Shown: in pieces, positions 14,737-64,000 of the stretch
Layout: every line of letters begins with the position of its first letter
Position numbering within the stretch: position 1 is the first letter of the stretch
IMG/VR virus record: IMGVR_UViG_3300023184_000033
Location: 99,825-163,824 of that record
Direction: 5' to 3' (one strand)
DNA length: 64,000 nucleotides
From: a virus
Position numbers and translations under genes: made by a program
The notes under the pieces: generated by a model
Databases searched by the model: none
What the model was told of the DNA's origin: nothing
Seen by the model: the letters and a program-made list of their open reading frames with translations, nothing else

Positions 14737-17646
14737 TTACTCCAGTATTAATATACTACCGTCTTCTGTTGTTAATGAGAAACCATCTTCCGTTACTAAT
14801 TCAGGAACGTATTCTAGTCCAATTGGTCCAATAATTCTTACACTCTTACCACTTGCTTGTATAGTTCTGTTGACTGAAACAAAAGAATTGGCAATATTAG
14901 AAGTTACATTTGCTGATGTGTATAAAATTCCATGTTCATAATCTACTGATGATACAGTATATGTGTTAGTTGAAATCTTAATTAAATCACCAGCAAACAC
15001 AATGTCTTTTAATGGGTATGCAGTATTACTGTAAACGCCATTGTTCATTACATTGTAAGAATTTGTAATTGCTCTGATATTTATTATCTTAGTGTTGGCA
15101 TTGGCCGACACATATGCAACATTTGAATATGTTAAGAATACACTATCTTTTAATGTGATTAGGTTGTTTGCATAATCAACACCAATAACTTCAGACCTAA
15201 CATTAGGTCCATGTGATGTTGACATGTAAAACACAGAGTTTGGTATTCCAGATTGATTTGTGAATATGAATGTTGCAATGTTTGCACCAGCCGTATTACT
15301 CAACAATACTTTGTTATTGCTGTGGTTTGTAAAGTTAGCCACAATTTTTGCAGCGCTTGCGGAGTCTCCAGTATAATCTTGTAAGTGTACAGCTTTATAT
15401 AAAGCATTTAGACCGGCAACTTTAATGTTTGTATTTGACCTTAATGCATAACGACCTCTGAGTTTTGTTCCAGCAGGATGCAATAAATTCAGTACAACGT
15501 TTCTATACTTTTCAATTTCTCTCTCAACTGTAATTTGATAAGTGAAGTCATTGTAAATATCACTTTCAAGTACATCAAACGAACTTGGTTGACCAGATGT
15601 GTCTAAGTATTGACCTTGACTGAACACCAATCCGTTTAAGAAAGATGCTTGTGCTAAAGCTGCACCATCACCATAGTTTTTAATACCAAATCCATTATAA
15701 TCAGGACTTCCAATATAATATCTGTTTGCCTCAGCCGCAGTATTGGCCATTCTTAGATTGATATTTTTATTTTCAATCACCAATGGCAATCTTGGATTTG
15801 GTTGTGAGTTGTAATTGAAAACCCGAATGTTATACAATGAATTGAATGTGTTTATATCACCATTTAATAATCTAACCGAATCCACAAATCCGGAATATGA
15901 TGTGGTCTTAGGAGAATTACCTTGATAGATAAAGTCGCCGGCTGAAGGCAACAAAAGAATGTCTGCATTTGACACTAAAATGTCCTGCACAGAAAGAGAA
16001 ACATTTGGTGAAGAAACATAATCTTCACCATTATTAGTTAAGTTGATTGTTGTGACAGAACCAATCTTTTGTGTGGCCACAGAGAATGATGCACCAGCAC
16101 CCAAGATACCCGGAACAAAAAGACTTGCGTTAGCAGCTTGTGTGTTACTAGAAACAACTGTTACTGTTGGTAAAAATTCATTGTTGTAACCCATGCCACC
16201 CAATGGATAATTTTGTGGCCTTGCAGTATTACTTCGATAAACATAACGGACACCAGTAATCGAACCTGCTGAGTTTACTGTGATGTTTGCTTGAGCGCCA
16301 TATCCATTACCACCAGTAATTCTAATAACATCATTTGCACGATAACCACGGCCAGCATTTGCAATTTGTATTGGTGCAAGAATGCCTAGTTTATCTAAAA
16401 AGGCATCACCATTAATATCGGTTTTCTGAGTACTGTATGCAGTAACTTCTGGTAATTTTGAAATACCACCGCCACCATTAATAACTGCAACAGAAGAAAT
16501 GGGGAATGTTGAAAACGAAATAAAGTTTAATGTATTACCAATTGATGTGTTTGCATTTGACCATGCGGAGTTTACAAAGTTGTAATTGTTTGCATTGAGT
16601 ACTACAGCCAATTTGCCATAAATTGAATCTGTTGGAAACATAAACACATTAGCTTGTGTATTTACATTTGGGTCAACAGAATACACAATTGCATTTGCAC
16701 CTGGAGCATTAGTAATTGTTAATTTTGTATACGGATACAAAGAATAACCAAAACCACCTTTAATTGTATTGATACCTGTAATCGCACCAGACGTTACGGT
16801 ACCGATTTCAGCAGTAGCACCAATTGGTGTTTGAATATCAGGATTTAAACCACCATAAACAATTACGGGGTCACCAACTTGATATAATGTGCCTCGATTA
16901 AGTGGAACACCTTTATCATTATTTTTTAAGTTAATTTGACTAACTTGACCTACAACTTTACTTGTAAGAATTGTTCCATTAATTAAAATATTTTGATTAT
17001 TATTATCAACAATACGAATTGTTTCACCAGATTCGAACAGACGTTCGATGTTTGAAATAAAGACTTCAATTTTATTACCAACTAAAATTGCATTTTCAAT
17101 TGTTGCAATAGACTTGGATGTTTCACCAAAAACTCTTAGGTTTTTAGTTTGTAAGAATCTTAAATCACTTGTTGCAAGTTTAAGACTCTTTGCAACATAC
17201 CATGTACCGGCCGATGCCCGTAAAATTGTATCACTTGTTTTGTAATATTCAAAATCAGAATTATATAAAACACGAAACAAAAATTGATAGGATGCTGGCG
17301 TGCCTTTTGATTGATAGAGCTGTTTTGCAAATTTAACAGCTTTTTGTTGATTGACTAATGATTCTTTTGGAAAATATGGTAAAAAATCATTTACATAGTA
17401 ATCAATGAACGCATCAATTGTTGTGTCAATATCCTTATACTGTAAAAGATTTGAAGAACCAAAATTAGCACCTTGACCGGTACTAACAGCTTCAGTAACT
17501 GCTGAATTGGCGGTGTTGGCTAACTCAAGCCATTCATAGTAGGCCTGAAGAAATACCTGAAAATTACTGTATTCGGGATTTTCTCTTACGAATTGAGGTA
17601 ATTGATACGGTACAAGTAATGATGTTTTTTGTGTATTTGGTATCAT
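14737..17646 (-). CDS. gp7: Baseplate wedge initiator gp7-like
   Basis: QLPQFVRE..FLQAYYEW, YQSKGT..SYQFLFRVLY, DFTYQI..LLHPAG; C-terminal TEDG repeats. Confidence 0.8.
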   Translation of the reverse strand: MIPNTQKTSLLVPYQLPQFVRENPEYSNFQVFLQAYYEWLELANTANSAVTEAVSTGQGANFGSSNLLQYKDIDTTIDAFIDYYVNDFLPYFPKESLVNQQKAVKFAKQLYQSKGTPASYQFLFRVLYNSDFEYYKTSDTILRASAGTWYVAKSLKLATSDLRFLQTKNLRVFGETSKSIATIENAILVGNKIEVFISNIERLFESGETIRIVDNNNQNILINGTILTSKVVGQVSQINLKNNDKGVPLNRGTLYQVGDPVIVYGGLNPDIQTPIGATAEIGTVTSGAITGINTIKGGFGYSLYPYTKLTITNAPGANAIVYSVDPNVNTQANVFMFPTDSIYGKLAVVLNANNYNFVNSAWSNANTSIGNTLNFISFSTFPISSVAVINGGGGISKLPEVTAYSTQKTDINGDAFLDKLGILAPIQIANAGRGYRANDVIRITGGNGYGAQANITVNSAGSITGVRYVYRSNTARPQNYPLGGMGYNNEFLPTVTVVSSNTQAANASLFVPGILGAGASFSVATQKIGSVTTINLTNNGEDYVSSPNVSLSVQDILVSNADILLLPSAGDFIYQGNSPKTTSYSGFVDSVRLLNGDINTFNSLYNIRVFNYNSQPNPRLPLVIENKNINLRMANTAAEANRYYIGSPDYNGFGIKNYGDGAALAQASFLNGLVFSQGQYLDTSGQPSSFDVLESDIYNDFTYQITVEREIEKYRNVVLNLLHPAGTKLRGRYALRSNTNIKVAGLNALYKAVHLQDYTGDSASAAKIVANFTNHSNNKVLLSNTAGANIATFIFTNQSGIPNSVFYMSTSHGPNVRSEVIGVDYANNLITLKDSVFLTYSNVAYVSANANTKIINIRAITNSYNVMNNGVYSNTAYPLKDIVFAGDLIKISTNTYTVSSVDYEHGILYTSANVTSNIANSFVSVNRTIQASGKSVRIIGPIGLEYVPELVTEDGFSLTTEDGSILILE

Positions 17647-54713: not shown

Positions 54714-54989
54714 TCACATAGACCAATACGCTTCGCTAGAGGGGCTGCAATAACGTGGTGTATCGTAGCGTTCCTGATATTCGCCGCCACCCATCATATT
54801 GTTGCGGGTAACAAAAGTCTCAAAAATCTGAAAACGATAACCATCCTTGGTCTTATAGGTTGGATAAAGTGATGAGACCTCACGTTCCATCGATTCCATG
54901 TCCTTGCGGTCAAAGTCATACTTGCTAATCAGGCGTTCACCTGTTTTCTTTCGTTTATCGGCTTTGTATATTTCAATCGTAAACATCAT
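54714..54989 (-). CDS. Conserved hypothetical protein
   Basis: EIYK.D.R.K.GERL..K.D, ERYDTP.YCSPSSEAYWSM. Confidence 0.75.
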   Translation of the reverse strand: MMFTIEIYKADKRKKTGERLISKYDFDRKDMESMEREVSSLYPTYKTKDGYRFQIFETFVTRNNMMGGGEYQERYDTPRYCSPSSEAYWSM

Positions 54990-55174
54990 TCTTCAACTCC
55001 AAAATGTTTTCCCATTTCTTCAGCAGCGATATACCCATGCTCGCCGATACTATCAGAAATACACATACATTCCTGCACAATTAACTGGGCGAATTTTTCA
55101 ATCTGTCCGTCTTGGGCATCATAGTATGCTTGAAGCTCAGATTGTTTCAGCAATTTTTTAATTCGTTCGTTCAT
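54986..55174 (-). CDS. MNERI/HFGVEE paralogue 1
   Basis: MNERIKKL...EKFAQLIVQEC...HFGVEE. Confidence 0.85.
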   Translation of the reverse strand: MNERIKKLLKQSELQAYYDAQDGQIEKFAQLIVQECMCISDSIGEHGYIAAEEMGKHFGVEE

Positions 55175-55208
55175 CTTGTGTTCCTAGTGTGTTGCTGTCT
55201 ATGCTTGT

Positions 55209-55237
55209 ATTATAATAGGGTTCTTAGGCCCTGTCAA
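55209..55237 (-). promoter_or_regulatory. Consensus sigma70 promoter TTGACA-17-TATAAT
   Basis: Perfect consensus upstream of paralogue 1. Confidence 0.9.
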
Positions 55238-55692
55238 CCGTTCAATTTGGCACGTAGCAGGTCGCTTAGAGTGGGCTGATGCTCTCCTGGAACAACCACA
55301 CCCTCCACGAACAGGTCCACGCCTTCGCTGTAGTAGCCGTTGCTCTCGCCTAACCAACGCACATCCACATAGCCCTTGCGGGTAGCGAACTTGTAGAAGG
55401 TATAGGTATAGCTTTCATAATGCTCTTCGCCAAGGTCTGGCTCAGGTGTGGCTCCCCGAACTTCCTCAGCAACCAACAAAGGCTCACCAACCAAGTCCTG
55501 CAGGTCACCAACAATATCGTTGATGTCCACACACTCGCAACAATCCTGTGAGTGAGCAAACATGAACCGCTCACCTTGTGCGGTTTCGAAAGTCATTTCG
55601 CCGTCACCAACGGACCCAGTCACCTGCACAAAGGTCTTGCCCAGCATCTGTGCCATGCCCTTTTGTGTGTCTACTATGTTGTTGTAATCCAT
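55234..55692 (-). CDS. Conserved hypothetical phage protein (GC-richer than flanks)
   Basis: H.QDCCE.V.I.DI.GDL, TFYKFAT.KG.V.VRWLGESNGYYSE. Confidence 0.8.
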   Translation of the reverse strand: MDYNNIVDTQKGMAQMLGKTFVQVTGSVGDGEMTFETAQGERFMFAHSQDCCECVDINDIVGDLQDLVGEPLLVAEEVRGATPEPDLGEEHYESYTYTFYKFATRKGYVDVRWLGESNGYYSEGVDLFVEGVVVPGEHQPTLSDLLRAKLNG

Positions 55693-55701
55693 TTTGTTTC
55701 C

Positions 55702-59195: not shown

Positions 59196-59399
59196 TTATA
59201 TAGCTATTTTGCTGGTCAACTGGGGCTGGCTGGGGCTGCTCTCGGGGACACTATATGGGGCACGGTGCCGGATGGGGGAGGTGCGTTATAGAAAAAGTTA
59301 CCACCTGGTCAAACTCTTTATTTCAAATTTTTATTTTCTGGAGCCAGCTCAGAGGAATCTAAATTTTTTTTTCAGGAGGCCTCAGAGGTCTCCAGTATT

Positions 59400-59489
59400 T
59401 CATTCGTCTTTGTCATTACGCATATCCCATAATACTATGCCTATCACGGATATGATGATTATACAGAAAATAATGTCATTGATTGTCAT
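59400..59489 (-). CDS. 29-aa membrane peptide (missing from track)
   Basis: MTINDIIFCIIIISVIGIVLWDMRNDKDE; ATGA coupling. Confidence 0.5.
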   Translation of the reverse strand: MTINDIIFCIIIISVIGIVLWDMRNDKDE

Positions 59490-59581
59490 TCTGTCATTGT
59501 CCTTGAATCTTCATTTGATCGATATGCATATACGATGGCTGCTACTATATAACCTGCAAAGAATCCTAAAATAAAACTCAT
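59486..59581 (-). CDS. 31-aa membrane peptide (missing from track)
   Basis: MSFILGFFAGYIVAAIVYAY...; start overlaps the stop of paralogue 2. Confidence 0.55.
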   Translation of the reverse strand: MSFILGFFAGYIVAAIVYAYRSNEDSRTMTE

Positions 59582-59799
59582 TCTTCAACTCCAAAACGGT
59601 CTTGAATTCTTTGTTCAATCTCATAGCATCTATCCAGCGCCCAGTCATCGGGTTCAGTAATGTTTCCCACATTACGTGCAATATCCATACATTCCCGAAC
59701 AATCAACTCGGCGAACTTTTCTTTACTAAAAATCAATTCACCGTCCAGTTCAACCAGACTTTGTGCGGCAAACCGTTCTAACATTGGTATCTTACTCAT
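59578..59799 (-). CDS. MNERI/HFGVEE paralogue 2 (replaced N-terminus)
   Basis: EKFAELIVRECM...RFGVEE. Confidence 0.85.
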   Translation of the reverse strand: MSKIPMLERFAAQSLVELDGELIFSKEKFAELIVRECMDIARNVGNITEPDDWALDRCYEIEQRIQDRFGVEE

Positions 59800-60107
59800 A
59801 CATTATTCCTTCCTATGCGGCTGTATCCTAACTTGGACTTAATCTCTTTACGGTCTCGGTTCTTCTCTGGTTTCCATGCTCTTGGATCCACAGTCTCTCC
59901 CGTTAATTCATAACGAAAATCTGGATCGTAAACCATATATCCTAACTTGTTCCATTTGATTACTCCTGCATCAAATAAGAAGATACAACCACGACACATA
60001 CAGAAACTGGCACCGTTGTCGCTCATCACATTGCCATTTACTGTGCCAACATATTTGACCACATTACCCTGGTGCATTTCTTTCAGTGCTTCGAAGTAAT
60101 CAATCAT
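59796..60107 (-). CDS. Hypothetical protein
   Basis: DYFEALK....G..V; coupled ORF. Confidence 0.65.
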   Translation of the reverse strand: MIDYFEALKEMHQGNVVKYVGTVNGNVMSDNGASFCMCRGCIFLFDAGVIKWNKLGYMVYDPDFRYELTGETVDPRAWKPEKNRDRKEIKSKLGYSRIGRNNV

Positions 60108-60250
60108 TCTTGTTCCATCTTACTAAAGTCAGGATCCCGGCTGTACCCGATATTAAAGTTACCAAGTTTCCACCAAATATAGCGTCCACCATAATCACAG
60201 GTTTGTACTGTAAATCCAAGAAACTTAAAATGTGTAATCCATTCAATCAT
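60104..60250 (-). CDS. 48-aa hypothetical protein (missing from track)
   Basis: MIEWITHFKFLGF...; GGAG SD inside the 3' end of paralogue 3. Confidence 0.55.
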   Translation of the reverse strand: MIEWITHFKFLGFTVQTCDYGGRYIWWKLGNFNIGYSRDPDFSKMEQE

Positions 60251-60485
60251 TCTTCACTCCCAACAATTCTTTGATTAGGGTCTTTTTATCTTCCGTGGAC
60301 ATACCAACTCCGAAATGTTGTTCAATCAAATACCACGCTTCGTGTGTGGCATCCATTCCATCAGCACCACGAGCAACGGTGATACATTCCCTAACAATCA
60401 ACTCAGCGAACCTATGAGCAATAATAGCATAATCAAAATCCTTATAGCCAGCCTCTGTGGCAAGTTGTTTAATTCTTTCATTCAT
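60243..60485 (-). CDS. MNERI/HFGVEE paralogue 3 (C-terminally extended)
   Basis: MNERIKQLA...RFAELIVREC...HFGVG-MSTEDKKTLIKELLGVKND. Confidence 0.85.
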   Translation of the reverse strand: MNERIKQLATEAGYKDFDYAIIAHRFAELIVRECITVARGADGMDATHEAWYLIEQHFGVGMSTEDKKTLIKELLGVKND

Positions 60486-60577
60486 TTGTCTAAACCTTGA
60501 ACAAAAAGACTGGCTACTATTGCCATTAGGAACAAACATCCAAGACCAATGGCATACACTATTAAAAATTCAATCAT
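60482..60577 (-). CDS. 31-aa membrane peptide (missing from track)
   Basis: MIEFLIVYAIGLGCLFLMAIVASLFVQGLDK; ATGA overlaps at both ends. Confidence 0.6.
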   Translation of the reverse strand: MIEFLIVYAIGLGCLFLMAIVASLFVQGLDK

Positions 60578-60789
60578 TCTTCAACTCCAAAATGTTGTTC
60601 AATCCTGTTACCAATAATCATACCTGGTCCAGACATTTTAGGAGCATCGTATTCGTAGGCAATGTCAATACATTCCCGAACAATTAACTGGGCGAACTTT
60701 TCTTCACGATCCCAATGAAAAATATCGCTGATTTTGAATGCTGGAATACCCCAAGCCTCTGTAATAAGTTCTTTAATTCGTTCGTTCAT
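60574..60789 (-). CDS. MNERI/HFGVEE paralogue 4
   Basis: MNERIKEL...EKFAQLIVREC...HFGVEE. Confidence 0.88.
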   Translation of the reverse strand: MNERIKELITEAWGIPAFKISDIFHWDREEKFAQLIVRECIDIAYEYDAPKMSGPGMIIGNRIEQHFGVEE

Positions 60790-61064
60790 GACTTCCCCAT
60801 ATCGTGTTTTAATCTACTATGAAAATTATCTTCTCCGTCGTCTCCTGATACCAACCAATCGATACGTTGTACGTAGATGTGAGCCAGTCTAAGCGTTGTT
60901 AATGCATTTTTGAACTCATCTATCGTTTCTTCACTGTACCCATAACCTTTTTTATCACCATACTCATTCAGTTCTTCTGAATCGTTATCGATGATTATTT
61001 GTTCTATCTCATCGGCGATGTTACCGATTTCCCATTGCTTATATTGGAAGTGTCCGCCTGACAT
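60786..61064 (-). CDS. Conserved hypothetical phage protein
   Basis: MSGGHF.Y.Q, A.IY.QRIDWLVSGDDGE..F. Confidence 0.8.
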   Translation of the reverse strand: MSGGHFQYKQWEIGNIADEIEQIIIDNDSEELNEYGDKKGYGYSEETIDEFKNALTTLRLAHIYVQRIDWLVSGDDGEDNFHSRLKHDMGKS

Positions 61065-61330
61065 TATTCTACTCCAAAGTGTTCTTTCAATTCTTCACCC
61101 AAGTCTTGTAGCAACCTTGCGTGGATATCATAGATATCTTCCCACTTGGCCGAATGTCCAGGAACCAAATCATAGGTTGTAATCTTGTCAATACATTCCT
61201 GCACAATCAACTCGGCGAACTTAGACATAACAGTTGAGTCCAAGGTATTACCTGGATGATACATATACACAGCATCACCCCACACAGCAATACCAGCCTG
61301 TTCAGCAAGTTCCAGAATTCGTTCGTTCAT
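61064..61330 (-). CDS. MNERI/HFGVEE paralogue 5
   Basis: MNERILELAEQAG...KFAELIVQEC...HFGVE. Confidence 0.88.
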   Translation of the reverse strand: MNERILELAEQAGIAVWGDAVYMYHPGNTLDSTVMSKFAELIVQECIDKITTYDLVPGHSAKWEDIYDIHARLLQDLGEELKEHFGVE

Positions 61331-61515
61331 AACATCTGTTTGTCAGCAAGCATGGATTCGAATGTAGCCCACAGTTGTTTGAATTTGAAATCATAAACGC
61401 AGGCTAGGCTGGTCATATCCGCTACATTGGCACCTTGAGATTCCATCATCGGAATCTCATCAGTGATTTTCCAGCACTCCAATATCTGTTGTTCTAAATC
61501 AAATCTATTACTCAT
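61327..61515 (-). CDS. Hypothetical protein
   Basis: RFDLEQQIL.CW, Y..KF..LW.TFE. Confidence 0.7.
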   Translation of the reverse strand: MSNRFDLEQQILECWKITDEIPMMESQGANVADMTSLACVYDFKFKQLWATFESMLADKQML

Positions 61516-61729
61516 TTTTAATTCCTAAAGTTTCGGGGTTATGATCCAACCTATCACTCTGTGGTTCAGAATAAAATGCGGCATCTTCATCGGTGATTGT
61601 AACACACAGGTCCGAATGTGTCAAATCGTAATCTGTGAATTGGTGATTCTCGCCATACACTCGAAACGCTACATCATAGCCTGTACGTAGTAAATGTCCA
61701 GTAACACCATTGGCTGGTTTAATTGTCAT
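61508..61729 (-). CDS. Hypothetical protein
   Basis: FRVY....F.DYDL.HSDL.VTI.D.DA.FY, LDH.P.TLG. Confidence 0.7.
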   Translation of the reverse strand: MTIKPANGVTGHLLRTGYDVAFRVYGENHQFTDYDLTHSDLCVTITDEDAAFYSEPQSDRLDHNPETLGIKNE

Positions 61730-61914
61730 TCTTCTACTCCGAAATGTTTTTTAATCTTGTCAACATAGGTGCTTGCTGGTTCACGATGGTCTACTGCACC
61801 AGCAACAATATTAACACATTCCCGAACAATCAACTCGGCAAACTTTTGACGGTCCAACCAACCTGTTTTAGGATCACTTGCCTTCAATGCCAATAGTGTA
61901 ATTCGTTCGTTCAT
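61726..61914 (-). CDS. MNERI/HFGVEE paralogue 6
   Basis: MNERITLLA...KFAELIVREC...HFGVEE. Confidence 0.88.
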   Translation of the reverse strand: MNERITLLALKASDPKTGWLDRQKFAELIVRECVNIVAGAVDHREPASTYVDKIKKHFGVEE

Positions 61915-62075
61915 TTTGCATAGACCAGACTTTTGGCCTCTGAGTTAGTTACGGGGCATTCAAAGTACATTATATCCCGACCTTGAATATCTTCCTCTAT
62001 ATTTAAAAATTTAACTTTTTCCGTGTCATGTTCTTCGGAACACTCTGTACAAACAACAATAAAATACCTACTCAT
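61911..62075 (-). CDS. 54-aa Cys-containing protein (missing from track)
   Basis: VCTECSEEH...NIEEDIQGRD..YF.CP; ATGA overlaps at both ends. Confidence 0.7.
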   Translation of the reverse strand: MSRYFIVVCTECSEEHDTEKVKFLNIEEDIQGRDIMYFECPVTNSEAKSLVYAK

Positions 62076-62284
62076 TCTTCAACTCCGAAATGTGTTTTAA
62101 TCTTATTAGCAATAATAGCACCCATATCATCTTCTCTATGACTAGATCCTAAAGCAAGGTCCATACATTCGTAGGCAATCAACTCGGCAAACTTTGCCAA
62201 GGGAACATTATCCCAATCTTCAATAGGAAAGTCAGCATCATCTAAGCCAGCCTGTCTAACCAGTTGTCTAATTCGTTCGTTCAT
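62072..62284 (-). CDS. MNERI/HFGVEE paralogue 7
   Basis: MNERIRQLV.QAG...KFAELIAYEC...HFGVEE. Confidence 0.88.
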   Translation of the reverse strand: MNERIRQLVRQAGLDDADFPIEDWDNVPLAKFAELIAYECMDLALGSSHREDDMGAIIANKIKTHFGVEE

Positions 62285-62460
62285 ACGAAATCTCTAAACA
62301 TTTTTTTTCGACCATCGACACCAATTTCTAAATCAAATAATTCCTTTGTACGCTGGAGCATCACGCAGGCCATCATTAAGATTTCTTCTCTGGAATCACA
62401 CATCATAATTTGTTGCTCAATCGGTTCAACCAACTCAGACATTCTCTCAGACACATTCAT
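62281..62460 (-). CDS. 59-aa hypothetical protein (missing from track)
   Basis: RM.ELVEPIEQQIMMCD.REE.LMMAC.ML. Confidence 0.65.
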   Translation of the reverse strand: MNVSERMSELVEPIEQQIMMCDSREEILMMACVMLQRTKELFDLEIGVDGRKKMFRDFV

Positions 62461-62461
62461 T

Positions 62462-62659
62462 TTAAGCCATACTATCTACATTTTGACCAGGTCTATTCAG
62501 ACGCCGGTTCATTTCGATTCTTGCTTCTTCTGTAATCTTTATATTTTGACTGATACGCCGTTCTTCTATTCTAAGTTCTTCGTGCCTTCTGTCTATCTTT
62601 CTAACCTCAGATTGTTGGTAGAATTTTAGATTCTGTGCGGTAACGCTAGATACTGTCAT
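62462..62659 (-). CDS. Hypothetical protein
   Basis: Coiled coil ending GQNVD..A. Confidence 0.65.
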   Translation of the reverse strand: MTVSSVTAQNLKFYQQSEVRKIDRRHEELRIEERRISQNIKITEEARIEMNRRLNRPGQNVDSMA

Positions 62660-62868
62660 TTTTCACCAAAATATTTAAGAATTAGATCCATTGCAGCAAT
62701 CAGTTTGATATTACTTGGCACATCATCTGGATGAACATATGCAGTACCTTCTTTGAAATGCTTTAGTTCTTTCTTTAGAATCTCTCTATGATCCTTCAGA
62801 AGACAGATTGTAATCTTATCAGCTGCTTCATAATCCAACTCTAATTTTAAACCTTTAAGTTTTCCCAT
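62656..62868 (-). CDS. Hypothetical protein
   Basis: GGAG SD before MGKLKG; HPDD. Confidence 0.65.
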   Translation of the reverse strand: MGKLKGLKLELDYEAADKITICLLKDHREILKKELKHFKEGTAYVHPDDVPSNIKLIAAMDLILKYFGEK

Positions 62869-63220
62869 TGCGTTTCTCCACGAATTTCTGATAATCTGCT
62901 TCGTTACCAATTTGGTAACCTTTGTCTGACATATGCTCGGAAGCCTTTAAAAGGCCAAATGTATCTGTGATTTTCTTAGTAAGTTGTTGAGCCATACCTT
63001 TGGCCATACTTTGGTCGTAACTTGTGTATACTACTTTATTATAGTTGCGGATATCACCAATAATGTCCAGTACGTCATTGAGAGCTTGTTCTACCATGAG
63101 GTCAGCATACTTCTGTACTGCTTCTTTGTCGTAAGAGTCCATGTCATCAAAAGAACCTTGGGCAATCAAACCAGATTCATACATCTTATCCTGGATTTGA
63201 CGTTTTCTCCAACCACTCAT
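62855..63220 (-). CDS. Hypothetical protein, possible distant MNERI-family member
   Basis: Start MSGWRKRQI; QKYADLMV and KITDTFGL echo the family's middle and terminal blocks. Confidence 0.6.
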   Translation of the reverse strand: MSGWRKRQIQDKMYESGLIAQGSFDDMDSYDKEAVQKYADLMVEQALNDVLDIIGDIRNYNKVVYTSYDQSMAKGMAQQLTKKITDTFGLLKASEHMSDKGYQIGNEADYQKFVEKRNGKT

Positions 63221-63444
63221 TTCTTCTTCCTCTTGGGTTTCACTTTGTCTTCTAGTTTTATCGCTGCCTGTAATGCTGCCTGTTTCGTTTGTTCTTCTTT
63301 GACCCACTCTAAGTGTTCTTTAATAAGACGGTCATAGGTTTCTTCGTCAACTTCTTGGTCGTTTAAACGATACTTCCAACCACCAGTGTCTAGTATAGCA
63401 GACACGGCTACTGGTTCTTTTACTGTTTTCTTTTTTACGACCAT
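63217..63444 (-). CDS. Hypothetical protein
   Basis: Basic termini; coupled ORF. Confidence 0.6.
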   Translation of the reverse strand: MVVKKKTVKEPVAVSAILDTGGWKYRLNDQEVDEETYDRLIKEHLEWVKEEQTKQAALQAAIKLEDKVKPKRKKK

Positions 63445-63713: not shown

Positions 63714-64000
63714 TTTTACTCCTAAAACTCAACGAAAAAATCATAGCCAACAGGTATGTCCACATAGACCAATTATACACCACTATAAGATAGGAGGCAC
63801 CAGCCACAATGGTAATATTGTAAACCAGTATCATAAAAACAACAAAATTATTACTCATACAAATCCTATATATTTTAGAATACCAACGTGCTTCATATTG
63901 GGCTTAAGTTTTCTTTTCCCATCTGATACCAAGAAGATTCAGTAACCACCTGCGGTAGAATGGTGGTTCTTCTTTTGTCCTAAAAACCGTTGTCTCGGTA

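Follow-up and report, generated by a model that had tools for sequence, protein, structure and literature searches.

The repeated 3' end of a family of small phage genes probably restarts translation of whatever gene lies behind it, and the three conserved blocks of these genes (head, middle and tail) would be the points at which phages exchange homologous DNA. This is the reading we prefer for a stretch of 64,000 nt (the window), positions 99,825 to 163,824 of the IMG/VR virus record IMGVR_UViG_3300023184_000033. The record comprises 163,824 bp, is judged 98% complete and has 36.6% G+C; the window is its final 64 kb, and most window genes are carried on the minus strand. All seven copies of the family in this genome fall inside the window. 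They have in common the head MNERIK, the middle block KFAELIVREC and the tail HFGVEE, and they belong to a large unnamed family of ~70-aa three-helix proteins from uncultured T4-like phages. Each family gene has three parts that are conserved in DNA as well as in protein: a head of ~35 nt that begins at the ATG, a middle block of ~33 nt and a tail of ~30 nt that ends CATTTYGGAGTTGAAGAATGA. Between them lie two hypervariable segments, V1 and V2.

Relatives were collected with a hidden Markov model (HMM) made from the seven copies. The comparison set consisted of 80 uncultured-phage loci, fetched out of at least 420 IMG/VR loci with family members; loci and contigs are designated below by L numbers. 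The HMM recovered 297 members (266 unique) in the 80 loci, with a maximum of 12 within 12 kb. Genes that alternate with family members are called cargo genes here.

The tail as ribosome site and start codon

The 17-nt tail pattern TTYGGAGTWGAAKAATG has six minus-strand matches in the window, compared with 0.13 in shuffled sequences, and none of 100 shuffles reached six. Each site is the 3' end of one paralogue of 62-88 aa, and the ATG within it starts a different open reading frame (ORF), of 91, 31, 31, 92, 73 and 54 aa, with starts at 54989, 59581, 60577, 61064, 61729 and 62075, respectively. The preliminary description of this DNA had reported just such an arrangement, and its coordinates were confirmed for all six sites, as was its account of the junctions, five of which are ATGA overlaps and one (copy 5) TAATG. 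The spacer between GGAG and ATG, given there as 8 nt, measures 7 nt; because GGAG lies 5-9 nt ahead of the start in well-separated genes of this genome, this is within the range used. The paralogues' own starts had been said often to overlap the preceding stop, and this is true for copies 2 to 7 (ATGA), while copy 1 has no overlapping start and follows a perfect (12/12) sigma-70-type promoter at 55237-55209. The start of copy 3, formerly placed at 60539, had to be corrected to 60485, an ATGA overlap at which third-party gene calls on near-identical contigs also put it; such calls further confirm the starts at 60577, 61064, 61729, 62075 and 54989. From ~62,910 down to 59,400 neighbours overlap at nearly every gene, and a GC-rich hairpin, probably the end of the operon, closes the chain.

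The same anatomy was found among the relatives. The downstream start overlaps or abuts the stop of the family gene in 229 of 264 unique members, in addition to the five ATGA, one TAATG and one 8-nt overlaps of the window: 209 (79%) are ATGA overlaps, 16 are TAATG or TGATG and 4 are 8-nt overlaps. At non-family genes of the same loci ATGA overlaps make up 330 of 1465 junctions (22%; Fisher p ~1e-69 against the family, relatedness uncorrected). TGA is the stop codon of 84% of family genes compared with 46% of non-family genes, and GGAG precedes 88% of the starts that form an ATGA overlap with a family stop, compared with ~20% at other ATGA junctions. In 97% of cases an ORF 30 codons or longer begins at the ATG of the family 3' end. 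Of 228 overlap junctions, 53 lead into a further family member and 175 into a non-family gene; these 175 genes form 139 clusters, of which 118 are singletons, and 30 of the genes have a membrane-like segment. The view of the tail as a unit of GGAG and overlapping start that precedes diverse genes therefore holds in the window copies and in the 264 relatives alike. Judged from these sequences, the coupling anatomy, a Shine-Dalgarno sequence inside the upstream gene plus an overlapping start, is real and general, and translational coupling itself is what sequence and statistics suggest: a ribosome ending a family gene would restart on the downstream gene, for which the tail provides GGAG, a 7-nt spacer and an ATG overlapping the TGA.

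No consensus promoter was found at any tail junction, the only 12/12 promoter being that upstream of copy 1, outside the gene. Junction folds were not consistently more stable than those of shuffled sequences (z -2.8 to +1.6). The one hairpin that recurs in the tail, a candidate CAUUUY/AGAAUG pairing (e.g. 60575-60595) with GGAG in an 8-nt loop and AUG in the stem, was rejected: its energy ranges from -0.2 to -3.1 kcal/mol, being only -0.2 kcal/mol in the commonest variant, and it has no covariation.

The tail is also found detached from the family protein. A 14-nt tail motif has 167 unique sites in the loci, 144 of which are codons of an intact ORF inside family genes and 23 of which lie outside, where chance would give ~0.1 (estimated from motif length and sequence searched). 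Some of the outside sites are in-frame ends of unrelated full-length ORFs (107 aa, 74 aa, 67 aa and a 43-aa membrane peptide, and also the L059 homologue of cargo gene 61508-61729); others stand in another frame, where an unrelated ORF ends ...FRS or ...QRS at the motif's TGA; still others are untranslated or in a mini-ORF, e.g. directly after TAA. All ten outside sites examined precede a real ORF, just ahead of its start codon. Head and middle motifs occur outside the family less often (5 of 165 and 3 of 154 sites). These sites bear out the portability claimed for the tail and are the best evidence, as far as sequence can tell, that it acts as DNA or RNA and not as peptide alone. Chimeras in which MNERI... 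is followed by unrelated sequence, rarer than tail chimeras, were noted at L059:6201-6344, L016:4803-5156 and L047:5644-5823. At L079:6001-6357, a stretch identical in L077, a CxxC-type extension continues the reading frame of a family member, whose tail reads ...GAAGAATCT; stop and overlapping start are both lost.

Synonymous sites of the tail, for which a check had been proposed, are conserved. Gly is GGA in 94% of members (background 21%), Val is GTT in 92% (background 40%) and both Glu are GAA in 97-100%. In the head, however, Arg is CGA in 88% compared with a background of 11%, and the middle block has GCC in 79% (20%), GAG in 86% (27%) and TTG in 84% (28%). Codon identity at identical residues of members from different loci is 0.79 in the tail, 0.72 in both head and middle and 0.45-0.48 in V columns, and 0.25-0.59 in control orthologues of this phage in the same loci. 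The tail is thus only slightly more conserved than head and middle, which have no ribosome-site role, and selection on the ribosome site therefore cannot be the main cause. Of the earlier proposal that RNA-level selection may lie behind part of the peptide conservation, the strong synonymous conservation stands, and the attribution does not. GGA is present in 186 of 192 members with a canonical downstream start and in 22 of 28 without one (p = 0.001), which fits some selection on the ribosome site, the latter members being also more divergent overall.

Exchange at the three blocks and its alternatives

V1 and V2 reassort between phages. In pairwise comparisons of 241 unique members, 80 pairs have V1 in common (at least 80% DNA identity); V2 is also common in only 2 of these and at background level in 72. 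Likewise, only 2 of the 42 pairs that share V2 have the downstream 135 nt in common, and V2 is common in 2 of the 14 pairs that share the downstream gene. At ordinary gene junctions of the same loci, similarity on one side extends to the other in 17 of 41 pairs. The 11 members of one V1 type (at least 80% DNA identity), spread over 10 loci, each have a different V2 type, and V2 types are likewise joined to various V1 types. As the sequences show it, V1, V2, upstream genes and downstream genes have been exchanged independently and almost freely between phages.

Homology tracts between non-duplicate loci (blastn, at least 100 nt at 85% or more) end preferentially at the blocks. Windows of the three blocks ±10 nt make up 5.2% of the sequence and contain 72% of tract ends. 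At tails the ends are enriched 12.9-fold and at heads 13.0-fold; equal windows at the ends of other genes give 1.0-fold and 0.6-fold. As an anchor the tail does not stand out, since head and middle are as conserved at synonymous sites and as rich in breakpoints. The earlier idea that the repeats serve as recombination anchors thus gains support from the enrichment but loses its restriction to the tail, and near-identical relatives offered it no indel in the cluster.

The window copies are themselves mosaics. The N-terminal half of copy 7 is 91-94% DNA-identical to L001/L003/L004, its V1 being that of L001, L002 and L003, and its C-terminal half with V2 is 89.5% identical to L005, the flanks being unrelated. 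Copy 5 matches L059:7293-7430 in its N-terminal half (90.6%), its C-terminal half being unmatched; copy 2 matches L059:5044-5196 in its C-terminal half (96%), with the N-terminal half unmatched. Copy 3 combines an N-terminal half similar to L074 (80%), a C-terminal half similar to L071:6111-6217 (90%), an extension similar to L071:5150-5232 (88%) and a tail plus next gene similar to L023:5602-5773 (94%). In the ~94% identical loci L030 and L079 the family cluster is rearranged: tracts end in blocks of all three kinds, and one cargo gene has a different place in each phage. This pair shows replacement and reordering and not simple insertion; L038/L059, considered as an empty-site case, proved to be a match between paralogous blocks, and a search for empty sites (the same flanking genes with and without a family gene) gave no clean case.

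Such exchange would begin and end at the head, middle and tail blocks and would likely proceed by homologous recombination or template switching between non-allelic copies, within one genome or between co-infecting phages. The phage encodes a RecA/UvsX-type recombinase that could perform it. Neither integrase nor resolvase was found in the 98%-complete genome, from which tyrosine (PF00589) and serine (PF00239) recombinases are absent in searches whose positive controls responded; reverse transcriptase (PF00078) is absent too, and these results agree with the suggestion that cassettes may be gained and shuffled without an integrase. A crossover in the tail would swap the downstream gene while ribosome site and reading phase stay intact, and this would account for the persistence of tail DNA on foreign genes and even out of frame. 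That the blocks are identical in nucleotides is probably a cause as well as a result of repeated exchange.

Several points weigh against a family that both restarts translation and guides exchange. The blocks have only 30-40 nt and efficient recombination in T4 needs ~50 bp, and 28-60% of tract ends lie outside the blocks. Conservation of the tail cannot be assigned to RNA-level selection, head and middle showing the same pattern. The comparison data are metagenome contigs throughout, and the statistics treat sequences as independent, with shared ancestry uncorrected in the counts. Six contig pieces (five contigs, two of the pieces being ends of a 174-kb contig), which come from four assemblers and at least three samples other than this one, match the window at 98.9-100% identity over their aligned parts and have no structural variation of the cluster; two further populations, found via the identical proteins P0064 and P0120, are near-identical and have none either. 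The sole difference in gene content among near-identical relatives is an extra 10.6-kb segment in the 174-kb variant, and it is bounded by a duplicated DUF7448 gene with its early promoter (copies at L081:16593-17095 and L104:3992-4500), not by a tail. Breakpoints of such indels had been expected in the blocks, and the only one found lies elsewhere: homology of the variant to the window stops inside the promoter, past the -35 hexamer and 16 nt before copy 1. PeSLs (promoter-early stem-loop cassettes) are repeated intergenic units of ~100 bp in T4-type phages, each with a sigma-70 promoter and a terminator hairpin; they end in a Shine-Dalgarno sequence and start codon, lie beside small genes without known function, mark the limits of differences between close relatives and are able to form mini-circles (Arbiol et al. 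2010, PMC2839356; Comeau et al. 2014, PMC4122927). The 10.6-kb indel is a PeSL-like event and not a tail event.

Early promoters of these phages have a conserved leader, ACA..CATA.ACAGCAACA..AGGA, behind the -10 hexamer in at least three places (window 55175-55237; L081:17050-17115 and 17360-17400), and this repeated unit of promoter, leader and ribosome site resembles a PeSL without an obvious hairpin. Elsewhere, ~145 nt at L081:8257-8403, adjoining a 9-nt repeat, are absent from the window at 63874-63882.

Restart at the tail with exchange at the blocks has to be set against simpler and more elaborate accounts. Ordinary tight packing of genes would keep the tail peptide for protein function (packing of helix 3, an acidic C-terminus), make GGAG and ATGA by-products of its codons and reduce the breakpoints to alignment edges. 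ATGA is indeed the commonest junction type genome-wide (37 of 211, from crude gene calls) and, as given above, accounts for 22% of other junctions; Shine-Dalgarno-like 4-mers stand ahead of 57% of other ATGA junctions, HF belongs to the last helix of a confident model, and GGA persists in most members that have no nearby start. Neither protein function nor codon bias, however, explains codons specific to single columns (GAA in some, GAG in another, the rare CGA in the head), and tail DNA persists out of frame and untranslated before starts. Moreover, V1, V2 and flanking genes at 85-96% DNA identity are joined to unrelated neighbours, which requires exchange and goes beyond alignment edges. We consider packing alone unlikely. 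A more ambitious account makes the family a dedicated coding adaptor, which its three blocks and ATGA ends would turn into a socket: whatever gene stands behind it would be translated, and homologous recombination would be drawn to it. Freshwater T4-like phages would then shuffle early genes, and recombine the two variable loops of the adaptor, without a site-specific recombinase, and the gene would be kept at least partly for that and not for its protein's activity alone; this is rather doubtful, and we put it forward tentatively.

The family gene might otherwise be a selfish mobile unit whose blocks are recognised by a dedicated enzyme, e.g. a homing-type nuclease encoded elsewhere, general homologous recombination not being the driver. 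The family is very abundant and multi-copy, as many as 12 copies standing within 12 kb, ATGA bounds the unit at both ends, and on a near-identical contig a SegE-type GIY-YIG gene has been called some 8 kb upstream of the cluster; but the protein is a 70-aa three-helix bundle without a nuclease or recombinase signature, and what moves is half-genes and neighbouring genes, not the whole unit, which makes this account very improbable. Divergence of V1 and V2 in place, by diversifying selection or targeted mutagenesis and without exchange between copies, would suit two hypervariable segments on a conserved scaffold. It is contradicted by the reciprocal sharing described above (one V1 type in 11 members with 11 V2 types), the V segments differ in length and reverse transcriptase is absent, and we give it almost no credence. 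Scarcely more believable is an artefact of assembly, in which phages were joined at short repeated blocks. Blocks shorter than typical reads or k-mers and repeated many times per genome, in data drawn only from metagenomes, would invite such joins, but the window cluster is reproduced, whole or in part, at 99.8-100% identity in at least four samples by four assembly pipelines, and this uniformity across samples and assemblers argues against artefacts; L077/L079, L020/L026 and other pairs reproduce each other, and mosaics occur in 80 contigs from many projects.

The gene chain of the window and the family protein

The features of the window are listed in the following table.

Positions of family copies, cargo genes and associated features in the window
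Feature	Position	Strand	Remarks
Tail-pattern sites	54987-55003, 59579-59595, 60575-60591, 61062-61078, 61727-61743, 62073-62089	-	pattern search
Copy 7, 70 aa	62072..62284	-	start overlaps stop of gene 62281-62460 (ATGA); tail 62073-62089
Cargo, 54 aa, CxxC...CP type	61911..62075	-	ATG in copy 7 tail; stop overlaps copy 6 start
Copy 6, 62 aa	61726..61914	-	tail block 61727-61743
Cargo, 73 aa	61508..61729	-	started from copy 6 tail; end LGIKNE overlaps next start by 8 nt
Cargo, 62 aa	61327..61515	-	stop overlaps copy 5 start
Copy 5, 88 aa	61064..61330	-	tail block 61062-61078, TAATG variant
Cargo, 92 aa	60786..61064	-	started from copy 5 tail; stop overlaps copy 4 start
Copy 4, 71 aa	60574..60789	-	tail block 60575-60591
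Cargo, 31 aa, hydrophobic	60482..60577	-	started from copy 4 tail; stop overlaps copy 3 start; called independently on L081
Copy 3, 80 aa	60243..60485	-	internal HFGV (60306-60317) and 20-aa extension
Cargo, 48 aa	60104..60250	-	starts 8 nt ahead of copy 3 stop
Cargo, 103 aa	59796..60107	-	stop overlaps copy 2 start
Copy 2, 73 aa	59578..59799	-	MSKIPMLER replaces usual head; tail block 59579-59595
Two small hydrophobic ORFs, 31 aa (59486-59581) and 29 aa (59400-59489)	59400..59581	-	first starts from copy 2 tail
GC-rich hairpin	59375..59393		just past the chain's last gene
DUF7448 gene and early promoter	55190..55697	-	duplicated in the 174-kb variant
Copy 1, 62 aa	54986..55174	-	remote from cluster; promoter upstream; tail block 54987-55003
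Cargo, 91 aa	54714..54989	-	started from copy 1 tail

Homologues of the cargo genes were found both beside family genes and away from them. The 54-aa cargo 61911..62075 has homologues in L024 (74%, adjoining a family gene) and L076 (65%, not adjoining one). The 73-aa cargo 61508..61729 has homologues in six other loci, none directly behind a family gene, and the one in L059 carries a family tail ending GVEE; homologues of the 92-aa cargo 60786..61064 in L029, L032 and L073 likewise do not adjoin family genes. The extension of copy 3 ends in tail-like DNA with a 1-nt deletion (GGAG at 60260-60257, next ATG at 60250, 8-nt overlap), and the cargo starting there, 60104..60250, is 96% identical in protein to L023:5625-5768, which also lies behind a family gene. 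The cargo 59796..60107 shares 57% identity with L071:5675-6001, itself adjoining the start of a family gene. The 31-aa ORF 59486-59581 has a 55% identical match in L059 and is called as a gene on L103.

Tiny hydrophobic ORFs of 31-40 aa recur directly behind family genes (window 59486-59581 and 60482-60577; L030:4733-4855), and one type of them, MTDGDRAGWW..., was seen in five loci. The ORF 62855-63307 (150 aa from GTG; 121 aa as called on L081) is weakly related to the family (E = 3e-4 for the identical L081 copy) and carries YADLMVEQA, which is middle-block-like, and TDTFG, which is tail-like. An unrelated 84-aa gene, 62656-62910, ends KYFGEK with GGTGA and an ATGA overlap and so resembles a family tail in decay; in L013 and L018 homologues of this gene adjoin family genes. 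A natural variant at L081:12700 (window 59587) changes GAA to AAA in the copy 2 tail (RFGVKE), GGAG and ATGA being retained.

The family protein is predicted by AlphaFold (mean pLDDT 84) to form three helices (residues 3-11, 27-47 and 54-66). V1 is modelled as the loop joining helices 1 and 2, and V2 as the end of helix 2 running into helix 3; HF lies within the last predicted helix and GVEE beyond it. Pfam searches gave no family match below E = 0.1 and PHROGs gave none. In the PDB no solved structure resembles the fold, a protein atlas gave no named relative, and the sole fold matches are uncharacterised viral proteins. At least 584 clusters of relatives exist in a collection of 5.8 billion proteins; all of the 120 relatives listed are without a name or called 'hypothetical protein', and none has a Pfam domain. 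T4 RegB cuts GGAG in early mRNAs. A weak Pfam match of copy 3 (E = 0.11) was judged noise, and a search for the RegB gene found no match in the phage genome, control genomes giving no match either.

No match was found among 50,697 phage records by megablast of the region, tblastn of copy 7 or blastn of the tail-head junction; the family is thus not seen in isolates at the sensitivity of these searches. The 14 matches among 185,579 prokaryote species genomes all fall in metagenome-assembled genomes (MAGs), mostly on short contigs and in several cases from lake samples, and they give no reliable host. L113, a 183-kb contig binned as Haliscomenobacter sp., carries the family and is probably a complete phage genome mis-binned into a MAG.

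Comparison with known systems and implications

The literature library searched contained no mention of the motifs. PeSLs are the closest system described, and by analogy with PeSL cassettes the blocks can be regarded as their coding, translational counterpart. Both carry an expression signal for the downstream gene, both are repeated conserved DNA flanking variable small genes and bounding differences between related phages, and neither needs a site-specific recombinase. The blocks differ in being coding segments of 30-40 nt, not intergenic, without a promoter or a stable hairpin; PeSLs provide transcription signals, whereas the blocks would provide translation signals within one long operon, and they also shuffle the two halves of the gene that carries them.

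Coupling through a start that overlaps the stop (ATGA or TAATG), the Shine-Dalgarno sequence lying within the upstream gene, is common in phage and bacterial operons, and the tail has the same anatomy of GGAG, 7-nt spacer and ATG overlapping the stop. Here, however, one conserved DNA block is reused before ~139 unrelated gene clusters and is also found detached from its protein. According to the linker model of Susskind and Botstein (1978), short conserved sequences between modules reportedly act as sites of homologous exchange, in intergenic positions of lambdoid phages; to our knowledge the model found little later support. The blocks are likewise short conserved sequences between modules that may serve in homologous exchange, but these linkers belong to a coding gene and their enrichment in breakpoints has been measured.

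In the Neisseria pilE/pilS system, variable mini-cassettes alternate with short conserved blocks that guide recombination, with one expression locus and silent donors. Reassortment of V1 and V2 resembles such mini-cassette exchange, except that here all copies are intact and, from their sequences, apparently expressed, and that neighbouring genes move too. Like integrons, the phage loci hold arrays of small unrelated genes that are gained, lost and reordered; unlike integrons, they have no integrase or resolvase and no attC-like sites, and the repeat unit is a coding gene.

These results bear on an old question, the way in which the numerous small early genes of phages, whose function is unknown, are acquired, lost and rearranged. 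PeSLs are one answer for a few cultured T4-type phages, and the present family is a measurable second case in a very large uncultured group. Here the sites of exchange are located within a coding gene and bring signals for translation in place of transcription. The use of junctions can be counted in the hundreds of natural recombinants that the family provides, and the family suggests a design rule by which a gene inserted behind the tail would be expressed without signals of its own. An abundant unnamed family whose two loops reassort like cassettes presents the kind of pattern that is typical for proteins engaged in an arms race with a host.

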